DNA of 64,000 nucleotides from an uncultured Bacteroidales bacterium (lineage in GTDB: Bacteria > Bacteroidota > Bacteroidia > Bacteroidales > UBA932). The DNA lies in contig CAMVMG010000003.1 of assembly GCA_947168525.1 (NCBI GenBank), positions 93,823 to 157,822 on the forward strand, written 5' to 3'. The notes below the pieces were generated by a model that ran no database searches, was not told the DNA's origin, and saw nothing but the letters and a program-made list of their open reading frames with translations. The first letter of the stretch is position 1. The number at the start of each line of letters is the position of its first letter. This document shows positions 9,323 to 47,893 of the stretch, piece by piece. A program made the translations under genes and the position numbers.

Positions 9323-9515
9323 GGATTCTCATTTTTCGGTCATTCTTTCTTGCAAAGATGGGAATATTTTTTGGAATATCGCTGGCCCCGCCCCCGTTCA
9401 CAGCCCAAGCTGCGCCAAAAAGTGACGGAGTGGTCCAAAACAGAGTACCGGCACTTGATAATATAATTAGTTTTTACTAAACTTGTGCAAAAGAGCGAAA
9501 CCATGGGAGGGACCT

Positions 9516-16652: not shown

Positions 16653-16661
16653 ACAAAAAAA

Positions 16662-16758
16662 GGGAAAGCTGATTACATCGCACCGCTACAACCTCCTACC
16701 CTTGCTACATTCCTGTCCTGGGGGAATTCAGAGGGAGCTGGTCGTGTAAGACTTTCCC
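16662..16758 (-). ncRNA. ffs: Signal recognition particle RNA (small SRP/4.5S)
   Basis: Minus strand GGGAAAG…CTCTGAATTCCCCCAGGACA-GGAA-TGTAGCAAGGG…CTTTCCC: long closing stem, SRP domain IV CAGG..GGAA..AGCA; TACCTTTG promoter just upstream and T-run downstream. Confidence 0.85.
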
Positions 16759-16796
16759 GCTGCAAAGGTAGGCATTTTTAGCAAACAAGCAAACAG

Positions 16797-18840: not shown

Positions 18841-19471
18841 TCAGAAGATACTCCAGGCCCAGTTTGGGCACAAAATGCACCCCTTCTTTTCTATAGTATT
18901 TCAGGTCCGGGTCCGGGCCTTCGGCCGGTATCAGGAAGATGTTTTCGGCCGGTTTGCCGATGGCGATCACGGCAACGGGTTCCAGTGGTAACTGCAAGGC
19001 TTCCTTAAGCGCTTCCTTCTGGAAATTAAGGATAAAGATGCCGCCCAGGCCCATCTCTACGGCCTTCAGGAGGATGCTCTGTCCGGCAAAACCCAGGTCT
19101 ATATCTATCACCTTGTCTTCCGGAATGCTGCTGCAGACCACCAGGAATGCCTTGGGCTCCATCCCGGGCTTGGGCAGATGCTCCTGAGGAAGGGCGGCGC
19201 CCAGCTTAGTGAGCGGCAGAACCTTATCGGCCTCCTCTTCCGTCACCAGACGGTATCGGAGCACCTGCCGGTTCATTCCCGAGGCTACCAGTGAAGTCAC
19301 TTTCACCAGGCTCTCCAGCTCTTCCCGGCTTACCGTCCGCGCAGGGTCGTATCCCCGGTAACTCCGGTTCCGGTGCAACAGCGTGTCCAGCGAAGGATGG
19401 TTTCGTTTAACCACGGTCTTCCTCTGTCCGGCAAGTTCCGCCTGCCTTTTTTCCAGAAAATTGTCTGCCAT
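18833..19471 (-). CDS. Nitroreductase family protein
   Basis: RNRSYRGY, ASGMNRQ and IDLGFAGQSILLKAVEMGLGG motifs. True start is MADNF at 19471; the upstream extension in the track reads through the repeat array. Confidence 0.9.
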   Translation of the reverse strand: MADNFLEKRQAELAGQRKTVVKRNHPSLDTLLHRNRSYRGYDPARTVSREELESLVKVTSLVASGMNRQVLRYRLVTEEEADKVLPLTKLGAALPQEHLPKPGMEPKAFLVVCSSIPEDKVIDIDLGFAGQSILLKAVEMGLGGIFILNFQKEALKEALQLPLEPVAVIAIGKPAENIFLIPAEGPDPDLKYYRKEGVHFVPKLGLEYLLIK

Positions 19472-19521
19472 ATCCCTTGTATTTCCACAAAAATAACGAT
19501 TTTCCCCCATTCTTCCTGGTC

Positions 19522-19657
19522 CCAAGTGCAAAAACCGCCCAAAATGCACTTGGCAGCCACCAAACTGCCCGGCCCAAGTGCAAAAACCGCCCAAAATGCA
19601 CTTGGTAAGCACCAAACTGCCCGGTCCAAGTGCAAAATCGACCTAAAATGCACTTGA
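19522..19657. repeat. REP-like tandem palindrome array A-left (3 units, 52-bp period)
   Basis: CCAAGTGCA-14 nt-TGCACTTGG units start at 19522, 19574 and 19626, separated by near-identical 20-nt linkers (YARCACCAAACTGCCCGGY-like). Confidence 0.95.
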
Positions 19658-19813
19658 CAAATCGTAAAAAAGAAAACGGATGTTGTCATTATTTCAACCG
19701 AACGGCATTAAAATACAACAAACATCGTAATAAACCGCAAAAAGAGACTTTGGAAGCCTGCCACGCATTTGCAGGAAGAGTAACTGGTCGTTATGTTTGC
19801 AAAAACATGTATT

Positions 19814-20731
19814 ATGAATAAACCGACGGAGTACCAGCTGGAAAGGCTATTTGCCCAGTCCGGACCTTTCTTCCACTTATATACATCGCCCTTGGAGAAC
19901 GATGTCTTGATGGACTGTGACGAAGACCGGACTATAATCCTGAACATGATTGCACTTGTTTCCCGGGAAGCAAACTTGGAAGTTTTGGCCTATGCCTTGA
20001 TGAGCAACCATTTACATATTATCTTCAAAGGCTCCGAGTTAAATGGGAATACCTTCTTTGAACTATTGGCCAAAAGGCTGAAACGATATTTGTCGGGGAA
20101 AGGGAAAGCCAAATGCATTTCAAAGGTTTGCTGCGGGATACAATCCATTACAAGCCTGAGACAGTTCCGGGATGAGATAGCTTATGTTATCCGCAATCCC
20201 TTCGTGGTCCGGGATGACATCAATCTCTTTGCCTATCAATGGTGCAGCGGCTTTCTCTACTTTAATCCTCTTTTGTCTTTCAGGAAGGGTATTCCTGCCG
20301 TAGAAGTCAGTTACCGGGAACGCCGGCGGATTACACGCTCTGCCGATATGGAACTTCCCGAGGGGTTATGGGTATCTGGCGACTTAATTCTCCCGGAGAG
20401 TTTTGTCAATTATCGGCTTGTGGAATCCCTGTTTGGAAGTGCCCGGAAGTTTTTGTTCTGGGTACTGAAAAACGTTGAGGCGCAAGTGGAGTTGGCAAAT
20501 AAGTATGGTGAATCGGTCGGTGTCTCCGACGATGAGATGTTCCAGTTGTCCAGGCAAATGTGTGAAAAACAATTTGGCGTCAAAACTCCGCAGGATTTGC
20601 CGGAATCGCAGCAGAAAGAACTCGCCATTTTGCTCCGGAACCGTTACCAAGCCTCGAACGCTCAATTATGCCGATTAACCGGCCTTTCCAAATCCAAGAT
20701 TGACACACTTTATCCCCTTTCCACCAGATAA
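19814..20731 (+). mobile_element. HUH/Y1 tyrosine transposase, REP-associated (RAYT-like)
   Basis: HUH motif in LAYALMSNHLHII, catalytic Tyr candidate in AYVIRNP, YQWCSG, and a C-terminal HTH-like segment (AQLCRLTGLS). Visibly more AT-rich than its neighbours; flanked by palindrome arrays. Confidence 0.85.
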
Positions 20732-20742
20732 AACACGGATTG

Positions 20743-21034
20743 CCAAGTGCAAAAACCGCCCAAAATGCACTTGGCAGCCACCAAACTGCCCGGCCCAAGT
20801 GCAAAAACCGCCCAAAATGCACTTGGTAAGCACCAAACTGCCCGGACCAAGTGCAAAATCGGCCCAAAATGCACTTGGTAAGCACCAAACTGCCCGGTCC
20901 AAGTGCAAAAACCGCCCAAAATGCACTTGGTAAGCACCAAACGGCCCGGCCCAAGTGCAAAATCGGCCCAAAATGCACTTGGTAACCACCAAACTGCCCG
21001 GTCCAAGTGCAAAATCGGCCCAAAATGCACTTGG
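20743..21034. repeat. REP-like tandem palindrome array A-right (6 units, 52-bp period)
   Basis: Units start at 20743, 20795, 20847, 20899, 20951 and 21003; same sequence and orientation as A-left. Confidence 0.95.
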
Positions 21035-21074
21035 TAACCATCTCATACAGAAAAATGCGTATCTTTGCACTGCC

Positions 21075-22850
21075 ATGCCCAGTTACCTGCAAATAGAGAA
21101 CATCTCCAAGAGTTACGGCCCCAAAGTGCTGTTCCAGCATATCGACTTCAACATCAACGAAGGCGACAAGGTGGCGCTCATTGCACCCAACGGCACGGGA
21201 AAAACCTCGCTCCTGAGGATCCTGGCCGGGAAAGACGCTTCGGACAGCGGCGGTAAGGTGCTCTTTCTCAAAGACATCCGCATCGCCTTCCTGGAGCAGG
21301 AATATGCCTTCGACCCGCAGAAAAGCATTTTCCGGCAAATCATGGACAACTCCCGGCGCTGGACAGAGCATCTGGACCCGGACCACCTGTGGCAGTACGA
21401 GCTCCGCGTGACCCAGCTGCTTACCCAGTTCGGCCTCACAGACCTGGACAAGCCCATGAAAGACCTCTCTGGCGGCGAGGTAAAACGGGTGGCTCTCACG
21501 GAAATGCTTGCCTCCGAGGCCGACTTCTACATCATGGACGAGCCCACCAACCATTTGGACATCGACGCCATCGAATTCCTGGAAAACCACCTCAAGCACA
21601 GCCGCTGCACGCTTTTCATGGTCACCCACGACCGCTATTTCCTGGACCGCGTGTGCAATACCGTCATGGAAATGGACCGGGGCAGCATCTACGTCTACCG
21701 GGGAGACTACATGAACTTTCTCCAGAAACGGCAGGAGCGCATCGACAATTACAACGCGGAGACAGAGAAAGTGCGGAACGTCTTCCGCAGGGAACTGGAA
21801 TGGATGCACGCCTCCCCCTGCGCCCGCACCGGCAAGGCCAAATACCGCAAACAGGCCTTCTGGGAGCTCAAAGAACGGGCCGAAGACAGCTACGTGTCCA
21901 AGCAGGTGGACCTGAGCGAGACACAGGCCAAGGGGACCTACCTGGGCAACAAGGTAATCAACTGCAAGGATGTCTCCTTCTGGTGGGAGAACAAGTGCTA
22001 CCTGAGCCACTTCAGCTACAACTTTCAGCGCTACGAGAGGATTGGCATCGTGGGGCGCAATGCCGCCGGGAAAACCACCTTCCTGAACCTGATCACAGGC
22101 GGCTGGAGGCCGGAACTAGGCGGCACCATGGAGGGTGTGGTGGAACTGGGCGAATCGCTCAAAATCGGTTACTACCACCAGTCAGGCATGCAGTTCAAGC
22201 CTGGACAAACCGTCCTGGAAACCGTCAACGACACCCACCTGCTGGGCCGTTTCCTGTTCACGCACGACATGCTGAACAACCCCGTGGAACGGCTTTCTGG
22301 CGGGGAACGCAGACGCCTGTACCTGCTCACCATCCTGATGCAGCAGCCCAATTTCCTCATTCTGGACGAGCCCACCAACGACCTGGACATCGTCACGCTG
22401 GACATCCTGGAAGAATACCTGCAGGAATTCAAAGGGTCCATGGTGATTGTCTCGCACGACCGCCACTTCCTGGACCGCCTGGCCGACCACCTCTTTGTCT
22501 TCTGCGGCGACGGTGTCGTGAAAGACTTCGTGGGCAACTACACGGAGTACAGGACCTTCATCAAGGACAACGAGGCGCAGAAAAAGGCCGACGAAAAACC
22601 GGCCGCCCAGTCTGTCACCAAGGAGAAGACCCCCGTCAAGCGGAAGCTCTCCTGGAAAGAGCAGCAGGAGCTGAAGTCGCTGGAGGAGAGGCTTCCGGAA
22701 CTGGAAGCCGAGAAGGCCGGCCTGGAAGCGCAACTCTCCAGCGGCACCTTAGCTGCAGAGGAACTCCAGGCTGCCAGCACCCGCTACGGCGTCCTGCAGG
22801 AAGAGCTGGACGCCGCCGAGATGCGCTGGTTGGAACTCTCGGAGATTTAA
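21075..22850 (+). CDS. ABC-F family ATP-binding protein (Uup-like)
   Basis: Two ABC cassettes (APNGTGKT and GRNAAGKT; LSGGE; LDEPTN) and a C-terminal coiled coil; start MPSYLQ at 21075 after TATCTTTG. Confidence 0.93.
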   Translation: MPSYLQIENISKSYGPKVLFQHIDFNINEGDKVALIAPNGTGKTSLLRILAGKDASDSGGKVLFLKDIRIAFLEQEYAFDPQKSIFRQIMDNSRRWTEHLDPDHLWQYELRVTQLLTQFGLTDLDKPMKDLSGGEVKRVALTEMLASEADFYIMDEPTNHLDIDAIEFLENHLKHSRCTLFMVTHDRYFLDRVCNTVMEMDRGSIYVYRGDYMNFLQKRQERIDNYNAETEKVRNVFRRELEWMHASPCARTGKAKYRKQAFWELKERAEDSYVSKQVDLSETQAKGTYLGNKVINCKDVSFWWENKCYLSHFSYNFQRYERIGIVGRNAAGKTTFLNLITGGWRPELGGTMEGVVELGESLKIGYYHQSGMQFKPGQTVLETVNDTHLLGRFLFTHDMLNNPVERLSGGERRRLYLLTILMQQPNFLILDEPTNDLDIVTLDILEEYLQEFKGSMVIVSHDRHFLDRLADHLFVFCGDGVVKDFVGNYTEYRTFIKDNEAQKKADEKPAAQSVTKEKTPVKRKLSWKEQQELKSLEERLPELEAEKAGLEAQLSSGTLAAEELQAASTRYGVLQEELDAAEMRWLELSEI

Positions 22851-32742: not shown

Positions 32743-32850
32743 CTGTTTCTCCAGCTTTGACTTGGCGTAGTCCAGCGTAAGCTTGAAGGTCTTCTTCTGT
32801 GAGGAAGGGGCGTCGAACATGACGTCGGTCATTACGCGCTCGCAGATGGA
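32743..32850 (-). pseudogene. Diverged duplicate of the clpX 3' end
   Basis: Encodes [36 protein letters not shown] versus clp[36 protein letters not shown]. Hand count is 84/105 nt identical to 33160-33264. Confidence 0.92.
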
Positions 32851-32973: not shown

Positions 32974-33015
32974 AAAACAAAAAAACAGGCACCCATTTAG
33001 TGAATGGGCACCTCT

Positions 33016-33146
33016 GTCCACGAAAACGTCCTAATACGTGGACGAACCATGTAAATAACGCTCTCCGTCCACGAAAATGGCCAAAAACGTGGACGAACCA
33101 TGAAAATGACGCTCTCCGTCCACGAAAACGGCCTAAAACGTGGACG
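33016..33146. repeat. REP-like tandem palindrome array B (3 units, 51-bp period)
   Basis: (C)GTCCACG-14 nt-CGTGGACG with GTCCACG at 33016, 33067 and 33118; loops AAAACGTCCTAATA, AAAATGGCCAAAAA and AAAACGGCCTAAAA. Confidence 0.92.
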
Positions 33147-33159
33147 AGCCTGGGGTCTC

Positions 33160-34380
33160 TTATTTCTCCAACTTGGACTTAGCGTAGTCCAGCGTGAGTT
33201 TGAAGGTCTTTTTCCGCGAGGAGGGTGCGTCGAACATGGCGTCGGCCATCAGTTTTTCACAGATGCTCCGGAGACCACGTGCACCCAGCTTGTTCTGGAT
33301 GGACGTGTCCACGATCAGGTCCAGCACGGCAGGTTCTACGTCCAGGCGCATGCCGTCCATCTCGAACAGTTTCTGGTACTGGCGCAGGAGGGCGTTCTTG
33401 GGCTCCGTGAGGATACGCTTGAGGGAATCGCGGTCCAGCTGGTCCAGATACGTGATCACGGGCAGGCGGCCGACGATTTCCGGAATCAGGCCATAGGAGC
33501 GAAGGTCCATGGCATCTACATACTCCAGGAGATTGTCTGTGTGGATACGCTCTTTCTCCTCTGCGTTGAAGCCGATGATCCTGGTGTTTTTCCGGAGGGC
33601 GATATGGCGCTCGATACCCTCGAACGCGCCTCCGCAGATGAACAGGATATTCTGCGTGTTTACGTGGATGAACTCCTGTTCCGGATGCTTGCGGCCACCC
33701 TTTGGCGGAACATTCACGATACTGCCCTCCAGCAGTTTGAGCATGGCCTGCTGCACTCCCTCGCCGGAAACGTCGCGGGTGATGGAAGGGTTGTCGCTCT
33801 TGCGGGCAATCTTATCTATCTCGTCGATAAAGACAATGCCGCGCTCTGCCTTGGCAAGGTCGAAATCGGCCACCTGCAGCAGCCGGGTAAGGATGCTCTC
33901 CACATCTTCACCTACATAGCCGGCCTCCGTGAGCACCGTGGCATCCACGATAGTGAACGGCACGTCCAGCATTTTGGCTATGGTGCGGGCCAGGAGCGTT
34001 TTACCGGTTCCCGTAGGGCCCACCAGAAGGATGTTGCTCTTTTCCAGTTCCACGCCGTCGTCCGGCTTGTCTACCAGATTGTGGCTGATGCGCTTGTAAT
34101 GGTTGTAAACGGCCACCGACAGCACTTTCTTGGCCCGGTCCTGGCCGATTACGTACTGATCCAGGTAATCCTTGATTTCCTGCGGCTTGGGAGCCTTCCC
34201 CAAAGCAGGGGCAGCCTGCGAAGCACTCCCCTTCTTCTCAATCTCGTCCACATACTGCGCCGCCAGACGGGCACAGTCGCTGCAGATGAATCCGTCCATT
34301 CCCTGCAACAGGAACGGCACTTCAGCGTCGGTCCGGCCGCAGAGGATACAATGATCCGTATGGTCGTTCTTCTTAGCCAT
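33160..34380 (-). CDS. clpX: ATP-dependent Clp protease ATP-binding subunit
   Basis: C4 zinc finger, [22 protein letters not shown] and IDEIDKI motifs; start MAKKND at 34380 overlaps the clpP stop (TAATG). Confidence 0.98.
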
Positions 34381-46699: not shown

Positions 46700-47893
46700 T
46701 TAGTTAGCCACCACCAGCAGATACCTGTCCCGACCGACAGTACAGCCAAAGATATGAACGGGGCCGCCGGAGCGGCATCCCAGCTTGGCACGGAGCTGCT
46801 CGGACGTTACGGGCAGATTGCGGGCCGTGACTTCTGCCGACGGAAAACGCCTGCCCAGTTCTTTGACGGAATGGTTGTTGAAGGGAACCGTTTCCAGAAT
46901 CCGGAACCATTTTCCAAACGGCGTCAGGGCAGGAACCGGCACCTGTACCGTATATAGATGCGTGTGCCGGGACAGCTTGGTCAGGCCGAAGCGGCAGGGC
47001 AGCGAGAAAGCACCGGCTTTCAGGAGCGCCTTCCCCGGCTCGAACAGCCATCCTTCCGGCGCCGATGCATAGACGGTCTCCTGCCCCTCCGGAATCTCCA
47101 TCACCGCCCCGCCTTCATACACCGTCAGCGAAGGCTTTCCTTCATATCCGCGCTCCAGCAGGAGCAGCAGTTCCTTGCACTCCCCTTCCGCAGCCACCAC
47201 ATGTACGGCTTTGACAGAGCCCAGCTGCCTGCACACCAGGGAGATATCAGCCATGGGGGAAAGCTTCAGCAGCACCCGGGGAGCCGCCTGCCATAGTTCC
47301 GGCAGCAGCTGCAGCACGTCCGGCCGACAATCTTCCAGACGGAACACCTTGCGCCCGTCGTCGGCCCTCCGCGCCGGATCCAGGAAAAGGATATCGGCCT
47401 GGAAATCCTCCAGAATCTCAGGGAGATTACCCGGCTGCAACTCCCGGTTCCGGACCGTGATATTGCCCACCCCCAGCACCTGGAAATTATGCCTGGCGGC
47501 ATCGGAGAGTGCGGGGTTCATTTCATTGTACAGCACTTCACCGAACTGCTGCGAAAAAGCCCAGCTGTCCACGCCCAGTCCGCCGGTCAGGTCTGCCAAA
47601 AAAGGACATGGGATGTCCTCGTCAGGCGTGACGCTGCAAGCAGAGAGAGCCACGGAAGCCTTATAACGTGCAGTTTCGGTGGAAGAACACTGTTCGGCCG
47701 AGAGCTTGAAAGGATACCGGAGTTGTGGAAAAACCACCCACTCCGGCACTTTGCCCCGGAGCTTCCGGCGGACTTCCAGGGTGCTTAGGGCCAGGGAGAA
47801 ATTCTCTACCTGCGCAGCCCATCTATCCCTGGAAAGGGCCAGGGCACCCAGGTCGTCCCCGTCGTGCTGCAATATGAAGGATGCAAAATCCAT
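46700..47893 (-). CDS. SAM-dependent methyltransferase with THUMP-like domain
   Basis: EQCSS, DLTGGLGVD, FLDPARR, LKLSPMADI, EPGKALLKAG and HTHLYT motifs; start MDFASF at 47893. Confidence 0.88.
   Translation of the reverse strand: MDFASFILQHDGDDLGALALSRDRWAAQVENFSLALSTLEVRRKLRGKVPEWVVFPQLRYPFKLSAEQCSSTETARYKASVALSACSVTPDEDIPCPFLADLTGGLGVDSWAFSQQFGEVLYNEMNPALSDAARHNFQVLGVGNITVRNRELQPGNLPEILEDFQADILFLDPARRADDGRKVFRLEDCRPDVLQLLPELWQAAPRVLLKLSPMADISLVCRQLGSVKAVHVVAAEGECKELLLLLERGYEGKPSLTVYEGGAVMEIPEGQETVYASAPEGWLFEPGKALLKAGAFSLPCRFGLTKLSRHTHLYTVQVPVPALTPFGKWFRILETVPFNNHSVKELGRRFPSAEVTARNLPVTSEQLRAKLGCRSGGPVHIFGCTVGRDRYLLVVAN

Follow-up and report, generated by a model that had tools for sequence, protein, structure and literature searches.

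A RAYT-like Y1 HUH nuclease between direct arrays of five-turn hairpin units: a probable variant of the REP/RAYT system in rumen and gut Bacteroidales

The DNA considered here, called the window throughout, is a stretch of 64,000 nucleotides from an uncultured Bacteroidales bacterium of the UBA932 lineage (GenBank assembly GCA_947168525.1, contig CAMVMG010000003.1, positions 93,823 to 157,822 of the forward strand; coordinates below count from its first letter), and its main subject is a gene for a putative RAYT-like Y1 HUH nuclease set between two arrays of palindromic repeats. The local gene order is cdd, mnmA-nitroreductase, array-nuclease gene-array, ABC-F. These array-adjacent open reading frames (ORFs), together with clpX beside a third array, were named from their translations, the nitroreductase also through Pfam. 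The nuclease gene (19814..20731, plus strand) encodes 305 amino acids (aa), an assignment that draws on alignment, AlphaFold (AF2) modeling, Foldseek, Pfam and dN/dS, and hmmsearch found only this one copy in the window. Upstream lies array A (19522..19657, plus strand), with three head-to-tail units of which the last has no linker, and downstream lies array B (20743..21037, plus strand), with six head-to-tail units, beginning 11 nt past the nuclease stop codon. Tandem Repeats Finder (TRF) places 52-bp-period arrays at 19521-19660 (2.7 copies, 88% matches) and 20743-21037 (5.7 copies, 93% matches). Together with a pattern search, it reproduces the table of three and six units around a 305-aa ORF given in the preliminary description of this DNA.

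Each 52-bp unit is composed of 9-bp arms (CCAAGTGCA on the left and TGCACTTGG on the right in the unit table), a 14-nt loop (AAAACCGCCCAAAA or AAATCGGCCCAAAA) and a 20-nt linker, (C/T)A(G/A)(C/G)CACCAAAC(T/G)GCCCGG(C/T/A), whose copies show one to three differences. Units 1-3 of the two arrays are near-identical base for base, in the same order and orientation, and as single-stranded DNA (ssDNA) the array hairpins have folding energies of -7 to -9 kcal/mol (z-scores from -2 to -6). The pattern AAGTGCA-N14-TGCACTT has 9 matches, in a single orientation and all within arrays A and B, against a chance expectation of 0.13; none of 100 shuffles reaches 9. Regularly spaced palindromic repeats might suggest a spacer-less or degenerate CRISPR-like array, or else an artefact of assembly or chance, but we give such readings practically no credence, and they are refuted by several observations. 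The linkers that would have to be spacers are themselves repeated, as had been remarked at the outset in noting that unique spacers are missing. The identical gene, preceded by the same three-unit array, is also found on an independent ENA metagenome contig (L079), which stops within the downstream array, and therefore the arrays are not the artefact of one assembly. Moreover, the architecture recurs at about 50 homologous loci, and the excess of pattern matches just given speaks against chance. There is no cas gene among the six array-adjacent ORFs, as judged from their translations and with no HMM search for cas genes made. A repeat length of 52 bp is not divisible by 3, and the ORFs that cross the arrays are therefore not coding repeats.

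The arrays sit against promoters and gene 3' ends. Within 19380-21150 there are only three TAnnTTTG boxes, which precede the nuclease gene, the nitroreductase gene (minus strand, 19495) and the ABC-F gene (21060), and the statement that the arrays adjoin the promoters of the latter two genes holds, with a box beside each array. A putative outward-facing promoter segment (19488..19521, minus strand), recognized by its motif, adjoins array A, with its -7 box TATTTTTG at 19495 facing the nitroreductase gene, and the end of array B lies about 22 nt from the -7 box of the ABC-F gene. The nuclease gene itself is preceded by a putative Bacteroidetes-type -7 box (19792..19799, plus strand; TATGTTTG), likewise motif-based. 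The longest nuclease ORF would span 19793-20731 and encode 312 aa, but its ATG at 19793 falls inside this box, which makes the 305-aa start at 19814 the likely one.

The catalytic HUH/Tyr domain of the protein comprises its N-terminal ~160 aa (H66, H68, Y124). In an alignment of 42 homologues, H66 and H68 (SNHxH) and E121, Y124, R127, N128 and P129 (YVIRNP) are invariant and a WCSG motif is present, and the SNHLH and YVIRNP motifs first noticed in the window protein are thus features of the whole alignment. The AF2 model of the nuclease has a mean pLDDT of 85.8, and its top Foldseek match in the PDB is 4er8_A, the E. coli RAYT with a REP hairpin (E = 1.1e-4). Matches 2-30 are all IS608, ISDra2 or IS200 transposases, that is, 29 chains of IS200/IS605 TnpA. 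The Y1 HUH fold expected from the motifs is accordingly what structure prediction returns. Sequence-profile searches of the PDB with full-length and C-terminal alignments found nothing relevant; the link to RAYT and IS200 is made only by fold comparison. Among the homologues, 37/42 give a Pfam Y1_Tnp match of some kind, sub- or near-threshold, with a best E of 2e-7, and one truncated member carries the IMG label 'REP element-mobilizing transposase RayT.' Between the window gene and a 90%-identical orthologue (L001), dN/dS is 0.087, which places the gene under strong purifying selection. The invariant catalytic residues and this selection together argue that the nicking chemistry has been retained. 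The remaining C-terminal ~140 aa form a conserved all-alpha domain in which S281, N282, Q284 and R287 are invariant, and which reaches a pLDDT of 78.7 when folded alone. This domain has no Pfam match and no significant Foldseek match, to helix-turn-helix (HTH), DnaA or ParB proteins or otherwise (best E = 1.2, to assorted HTH repressors), so the 'HTH-like' label attached to this tail earlier remains a guess.

Searches for homologues returned 435 matches in 90% clusters. In the 50% library, 331 representatives pass E <= 1e-30, nearly all of them annotated as 'hypothetical,' and 6071 pass E <= 1e-3, the last set reaching into the wider Y1 superfamily; the plasmid and phage collections searched held no homologue. 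Most homologues are found on contigs of 1-3 kb, which suggests that the family is probably under-represented in metagenome-assembled genomes (MAGs), as short-read assemblies would break at the flanking arrays. Several homologues are truncated or have early stops (L025, L052, L054 and L055, with 35-187 aa readable); these are candidate pseudogenes, and some of them are still flanked by arrays.

A scan of species-representative genomes yielded 56 true homologous loci, all in rumen or gut Bacteroidales MAGs with one exception binned as Fibrobacter. The latter is a full-length homologue with cognate hairpins on a 100-kb contig (L010, JAFVGH010000034.1), which may reflect mis-binning or transfer outside the Bacteroidales. 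Arrays around these loci were delimited by TRF period, a measure blind to arm pairing. Arrays with a 48-54-bp period number 31 in the 61 kb within 0.5-0.7 kb of the gene and 3 in the remaining 303 kb, a density near the gene 51x that of the remaining flanks. A nearby array is detectable by TRF in 26/56 loci, and most of the others have one or two cognate hairpins, which are invisible to TRF. In 81% of unit consensuses the arms are complementary at >=7/8 positions, compared with 9% of shuffles. The proposal that each homologue should be flanked by its own array is borne out by these densities and by the arms, which follow the protein tree. Nearly all of the homologues have hairpin units of their own on each flank. 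Arm sequences vary from locus to locus (AAGTGCA, GGGGCA, GGTGCA, ATCCTCA, TTGTGTA, ACCGCAC, GGCGTCA, GTCCAC and others) and track protein clades, and paralogues within the same MAG are <50% identical and have different arms. By these comparisons the arms co-diversify with the nuclease, and the paralogues of one genome are orthogonal. The unit period is always 50-53 bp, across families unrelated in sequence, and the loop usually follows the pattern W4, GC-rich core, W4 (W being A or T). A loop length of 14 nt, which the preliminary description had taken as fixed, is only typical, the range across the family being 9-19 nt. In most loci the first hairpin lies at or over the nuclease stop codon (e.g., tcctcaaaaTAG|gcc...ttgagga). 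At many loci (L009, L011, L017, L020, L023, L006 and L038-L041) the stop codon, sometimes with the last codons, is inside the arm or loop of the first unit, and therefore coding sequence and repeat overlap.

The neighborhood of the gene bears on how it is inherited. In five species with proteins 53-56% identical to that of the window, the nuclease gene stands directly downstream of mnmA, and in 2/5 of them ABC-F follows it, as in the window. This conserved setting suggests long-term vertical residence of the gene, such as is described for RAYTs in PMC8266576. In the 90%-identical relative the order is cdd, array-gene(-)-array, mnmA-nitroreductase, array, ABC-F. Its cassette has therefore moved and flipped with respect to the window, and an array has been left at the old junction. 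In the relative, two array junctions (L001, L088) each have a copy of a ~35-bp segment holding the array-adjacent promoter, and the arrays seem to travel with this outward-facing promoter. The segment ends in a -7 box (GGGGAAAATCGTTATTTTTG) and is found at L001 3725-3760 (reverse complement), L088 ~9430-9470 and window 19473-19521 (reverse complement). Segment and array precede the nitroreductase gene, and in the relative mnmA as well; both proteins start with MADN. A model in which two inversions convert the gene order of the window into that of L001 was rejected, since the 35-bp promoter segment is duplicated. Between these close relatives, arrays coincide with rearrangement breakpoints.

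Mobility of this kind raises the question of an ordinary, currently mobile IS200/IS605 insertion sequence (IS) with multiplied subterminal hairpins. Such an element would share the Y1 transposase fold, and IS608 and ISDra2 likewise have hairpins co-oriented on both sides of the gene, as IS200/IS608 ends do. A head-to-tail hairpin pair ~20 nt apart, moreover, resembles the right end-left end (RE-LE) junction of an excised circle, and the cassette does differ in position and orientation in the 90%-identical relative. Against this, we found no near-identical copies of the gene where a multi-copy element would be expected, the within-MAG paralogues being the diverged ones described above. Synteny at mnmA is kept across species at 53-56% identity, dN/dS is 0.09, there is no tnpB, and plasmid and phage copies are missing from the collections searched. 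Unit numbers vary instead of forming single defined ends, and orphan arrays without the gene occur. An IS in this sense is therefore very unlikely.

One such orphan array, not noticed in the preliminary description, lies in the window itself (33012..33147, plus strand) and represents a second unit family, with three units at a 51-bp period, arms GTCCACG/CGTGGAC and loop AAAACGGCCTAAAA. Its stem is unlike that of arrays A and B, and its loop is of the same type. It starts 13 nt past the clpX stop codon with no nuclease gene nearby (hmmsearch), and its hairpin type matches that flanking L037, a member of a 37%-identical paralogue lineage. The clpX 3' end has an 87-nt copy, 86% identical (32746-32832 and 33163-33249), ~330 bp beyond the real stop, and between the two copies lie the orphan array and a terminator-like hairpin; part of the gene may have been duplicated, or a small insertion may have supplied a replacement 3' end. 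Elsewhere in the window, a Bacteroidales small signal recognition particle (SRP) RNA was recognized at 16658-16765 on the minus strand (Rfam RF04183, 110 bits), in confirmation of the host lineage.

A metagenome scan with the hairpin of the window returned 12 contigs, one of which has the orthologous gene while the others have orphan two-unit doublets. These doublets (among L080-L091) occupy at least six distinct intergenic sites on contigs of a close relative, 3-14 nt past stop codons, after a tRNA and terminator, and at the ABC-F/nitroreductase junction. At the site homologous to window 47598-47649 the relative has two units, and the window is empty except for a terminator-like hairpin. Five of the six orphan doublets are head-to-tail. 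In the doublet at ~1471-1555 of L083/L084 the loops are opposed (TTTTAGGCCGTTTT, then AAAATTGGCCAAAT), which is the only REPIN-like inverted pair seen. On two other contigs, opposed orphan doublets (L087 1246-1330/5666-5750; L091 4029-4110/8450-8531) bracket a block of 4.3 kb whose ORFs resemble lysA, lysC, asnA and an isochorismatase-like gene, followed by an apparent tRNA 3' end; this block is a candidate invertible segment.

The positions of these repeats might also suggest an element acting at the RNA level, in which transcribed hairpins serve as 3'-end mRNA stabilizers, terminators or processed small RNAs, with the nuclease gene as a mere neighbor. The first unit overlaps or follows the nuclease stop codon and the orphans lie 3-14 nt past other stop codons, and E. 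coli REPs have roles of these kinds, according to PMC8266576. However, no Rfam family is found at the arrays at gathering thresholds, the sense strand has no excess of G.U-compatible mismatches, and the arrays face either way with respect to the gene before them and also precede promoters. The 14-nt loops, without T-runs, are not terminator-like, and a period that is not a multiple of 3 is not coding. A search for RNA-seq data yielded one marginal run, the rest being unrelated single-cell libraries of the host. We would give this explanation only the slenderest of chances.

Array composition differs between close relatives. The two assemblies of the 90%-identical relative have two units upstream and two downstream (L001) and one upstream and three downstream (L090). 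Window and relative have the hairpin in common, while the linker is genome-specific and homogeneous within each genome, a case of concerted evolution. The suspicion that the arrays undergo conversion or turnover is thus supported by the comparison of the window with this relative, where a shared hairpin goes with a homogenized linker and unit numbers proper to each genome.

The arrays have a further property, unremarked in the preliminary description, that concerns double-stranded DNA. The unit corresponds to five helical turns (52/5 = 10.4 bp), and the fifth harmonic dominates the AA/TT signal in 32/37 arrays versus 10.8% of shuffles (maximum 27%), with a mean fifth-harmonic power of 0.85 versus 0.13 +/- 0.02 in shuffles. 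The A/T tract of the linker is in phase with both loop tracts (resultant length 0.86, mean offset -8 degrees, n = 28), and linker and loop tracts lie half-integer turns from the hairpin dyad. On the G-rich strand the unit reads arm, W4-Gcore-W4, arm, G-block, W3-4, G-block, and this strand is the gene sense strand in some clades and antisense in others, the window included. The phasing recurs in families with otherwise unrelated sequences. Phased A/T tracts are, going by the periodicity of the bases, a likely signature of curved duplex DNA or of one face shown to a protein. We therefore argue that the duplex form matters as well, the phasing pointing to a possible additional double-stranded DNA role of the arrays.

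To our knowledge, REP/RAYT systems have been characterized almost only in proteobacteria, and the mode of repeat spread is still unresolved. The REPtrons of E. coli, Pseudomonas and Stenotrophomonas pair a RAYT, or TnpA(REP), with REP/BIME/REPIN repeats (Nunvar 2010; Bertels & Rainey 2011; Ton-Hoang 2012; PMC3333891, PMC3116915, PMC8266576). The system described here resembles them in having a single-copy, vertically inherited Y1 HUH gene between cognate palindromes, more copies of the palindrome in intergenic regions, co-evolution of protein and repeat with the possibility of several orthogonal pairs per genome, and a best structural match to the RAYT-REP complex 4er8. It departs from them in several respects. 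REPtrons have a GT[AG]G foot, inverted doublets with variable linkers and hundreds to thousands of copies, whereas here there is no foot, the units run head-to-tail at a fixed 50-53-bp period and copies number in the tens. The A/T tracts are helically phased, and the protein is about twice as long as a RAYT, has an extra C-terminal domain and scores below the curated RAYT cut-off. The BIME-2 of E. coli likewise places consecutive tandem palindromic units between genes and at gene 3' ends, but it alternates REP and iREP, while the units here are direct repeats of one hairpin and linker.

Among published descriptions, the nearest is that of the Bacteroidetes subclass 2.6 of TnpAY1, noted for 'atypical secondary structures' and having a median of 179 aa and the motifs NH[LIV]H, WQ and YIH[QN]NP (Quentin et al. 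2018, PMC6006769). In common with it are the Bacteroidetes host and GTAG-less flanking structures with copies elsewhere in the genome; the present protein differs from it in its 305 aa, SNH[LFI]H, YVIRNP and lack of a WQ motif, a comparison by motifs and length. Subclass 2.1 of the same authors has NHVH/NH[YF]H, YIELNP/Y[IV]HLNP and a C-terminal HTH/DnaA_C-like tail, with no REP (Quentin et al. 2018, PMC6006769). It shares with our protein a long C-terminal extension, and both subclasses share the NH[LIV]H-type HUH motif and the Y...NP tyrosine motif, but subclass 2.1 has no associated repeats, unlike the system described here. Tandem arrays are not mentioned by Quentin et al. (2018; PMC6006769), where the word 'tandem' has no occurrences, and a full-text literature search gave no description of tandem head-to-tail arrays with RAYT in Bacteroidetes.

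Taken as a whole, we judge it probable, at roughly 65%, that the locus belongs to a REPtron-like system of rumen and gut Bacteroidales, consisting of a vertically inherited, domesticated chromosomal IS200-type (Y1 HUH) nuclease and its cognate repeat. It would be a previously undescribed relative of REP/RAYT, distinguished by direct five-turn units, the lack of a GTAG foot, low copy number, an extra C-terminal domain and phased A/T tracts. The REP/RAYT-type reading proposed in the preliminary description is therefore supported, since the system is RAYT-like by every comparative criterion testable. Without a GTAG foot, without inverted doublets and below curated thresholds, we file it as a variant and not as a member. 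The same description had already stated that the units are head-to-tail and lack the foot, and unit tables of both strands agree: there is no conserved GTAG/GTGG at the hairpin foot, and only certain clades have a GGTG, 3-4 nt away from it.

Several of these features weigh against our preferred reading as much as they define the variant. The GTAG foot is the cleavage guide in characterized RAYTs, and it is absent; the units are direct and not inverted doublets. The window protein falls below the cut-offs of both Pfam Y1_Tnp (PF01797; 14.9 vs. 23 bits) and NCBIfam REP_Tyr_transpos (NF047646; 20.7 vs. 80 bits). In sheep and bovine gut metagenomes, the k-mer depth of the unit is only ~3-9x that of the flanks, and therefore about ten to a few tens of copies are present, not hundreds. 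For the window locus itself, neither a gene-less A x B deletion joint nor an empty site was seen in Logan contigs (k = 31), in which the arrays are collapsed. Arrays could expand and contract through replication slippage or unequal recombination without any enzyme, and a duplex palindrome bound by a protein dimer would explain the complementarity of the arms equally well. Mismatches in the stems have no bias toward G.T over A.C on either strand (41 vs. 52, p = 0.30), and the relation of the arrays' G-rich strand to local GC skew is not significant (14 vs. 8, p = 0.29). In the window the G-rich strand of all three arrays is on the presumed lagging-strand template (negative GC skew), which amounts to only two independent cases.

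Several of these points can be accommodated by a purely architectural function, in which the arrays are iteron-, operator- or centromere-like arrays for curvature or binding, with a dimer of the C-terminal domain or a nucleoid protein on the arms. Their job would be structural or regulatory (promoter insulation, bending, genome structuring), and units would grow by slippage and recombination with the HUH chemistry uninvolved. A strict period of 50-53 bp, or five helical turns, despite unrelated sequences, the helical phasing of A/T tracts across loop and linker, stems free of strand-specific wobble bias, the conserved all-alpha 140-aa C-terminal domain with its invariant S281, N282, Q284 and R287, and the placement of arrays beside three TAnnTTTG promoters and 3-14 nt past stop codons all accord with this. 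In the F-plasmid sopC, 43-bp units stand in tandem and an HTH dimer binds the inverted repeat that each contains, and arrays of this iteron or centromere type may be likened to those described here in their tandem direct repeats of ~40-50 bp, with one short inverted repeat each and whole-turn spacing. The likeness is an analogy only, the present arrays being chromosomal, dispersed and tied to an HUH nuclease instead of a ParB or Rep partner. Conversely, HUH and Tyr residues invariant in 42/42 homologues, along with strong purifying selection, argue that catalysis has been kept. The C-terminal domain lacks a significant match to HTH, DnaA or ParB proteins, the gene is on none of the plasmids or phages in the collections searched, and some means of arrival is required for orphan doublets whose sites are unoccupied in a related genome. 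As a sufficient account, duplex architecture is on balance unlikely, and it is compatible with the REPtron-like reading, the two not being exclusive.

Under the REPtron-like reading, a mechanism may be sketched by analogy with IS200/IS608 TnpA and E. coli RAYT. A dimer of the nuclease would bind two neighboring hairpins as ssDNA and would nick and rejoin in or beside the 20-nt linker. Such nicking and rejoining would add, remove and occasionally transplant 52-nt units or doublets, and would maintain array homogeneity. With direct repeats on both its sides, the gene could loop out with one array and re-enter at another array elsewhere, which would account for its different position in the close relative. 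In duplex form the arrays should be curved or present a single face, and the C-terminal domain or a nucleoid protein may bind them. A bolder extension, which we regard as speculative and quite improbable, is a two-domain recombinase in which the nuclease is joined to a duplex-binding C-terminal domain on curved five-turn units and carries out site-specific strand exchange between arrays, moving its own gene, promoters and gene blocks. If true, such a domesticated single-strand recombinase would give structure to Bacteroidales chromosomes and rewire them, in a manner unlike REP/RAYT dissemination and unlike IS transposition.

What the finding offers to the biology of these organisms is, first, the definition of a large and essentially unannotated nuclease family in rumen and gut Bacteroidales. 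The pairing of nuclease and repeat is unusually legible in this family, as arrays touch the gene, arms change with the protein, paralogues appear orthogonal and the minimal dispersed element is a direct doublet. The recognition of hairpins by Y1 nucleases may thereby be tested on the many specificity variants that the family naturally provides. As a practical consequence, the arrays break short-read assemblies. Lastly, the five-turn period and the phased A/T tracts would add a duplex-DNA dimension, whether of curvature or of protein wrapping, not so far described in REPs.

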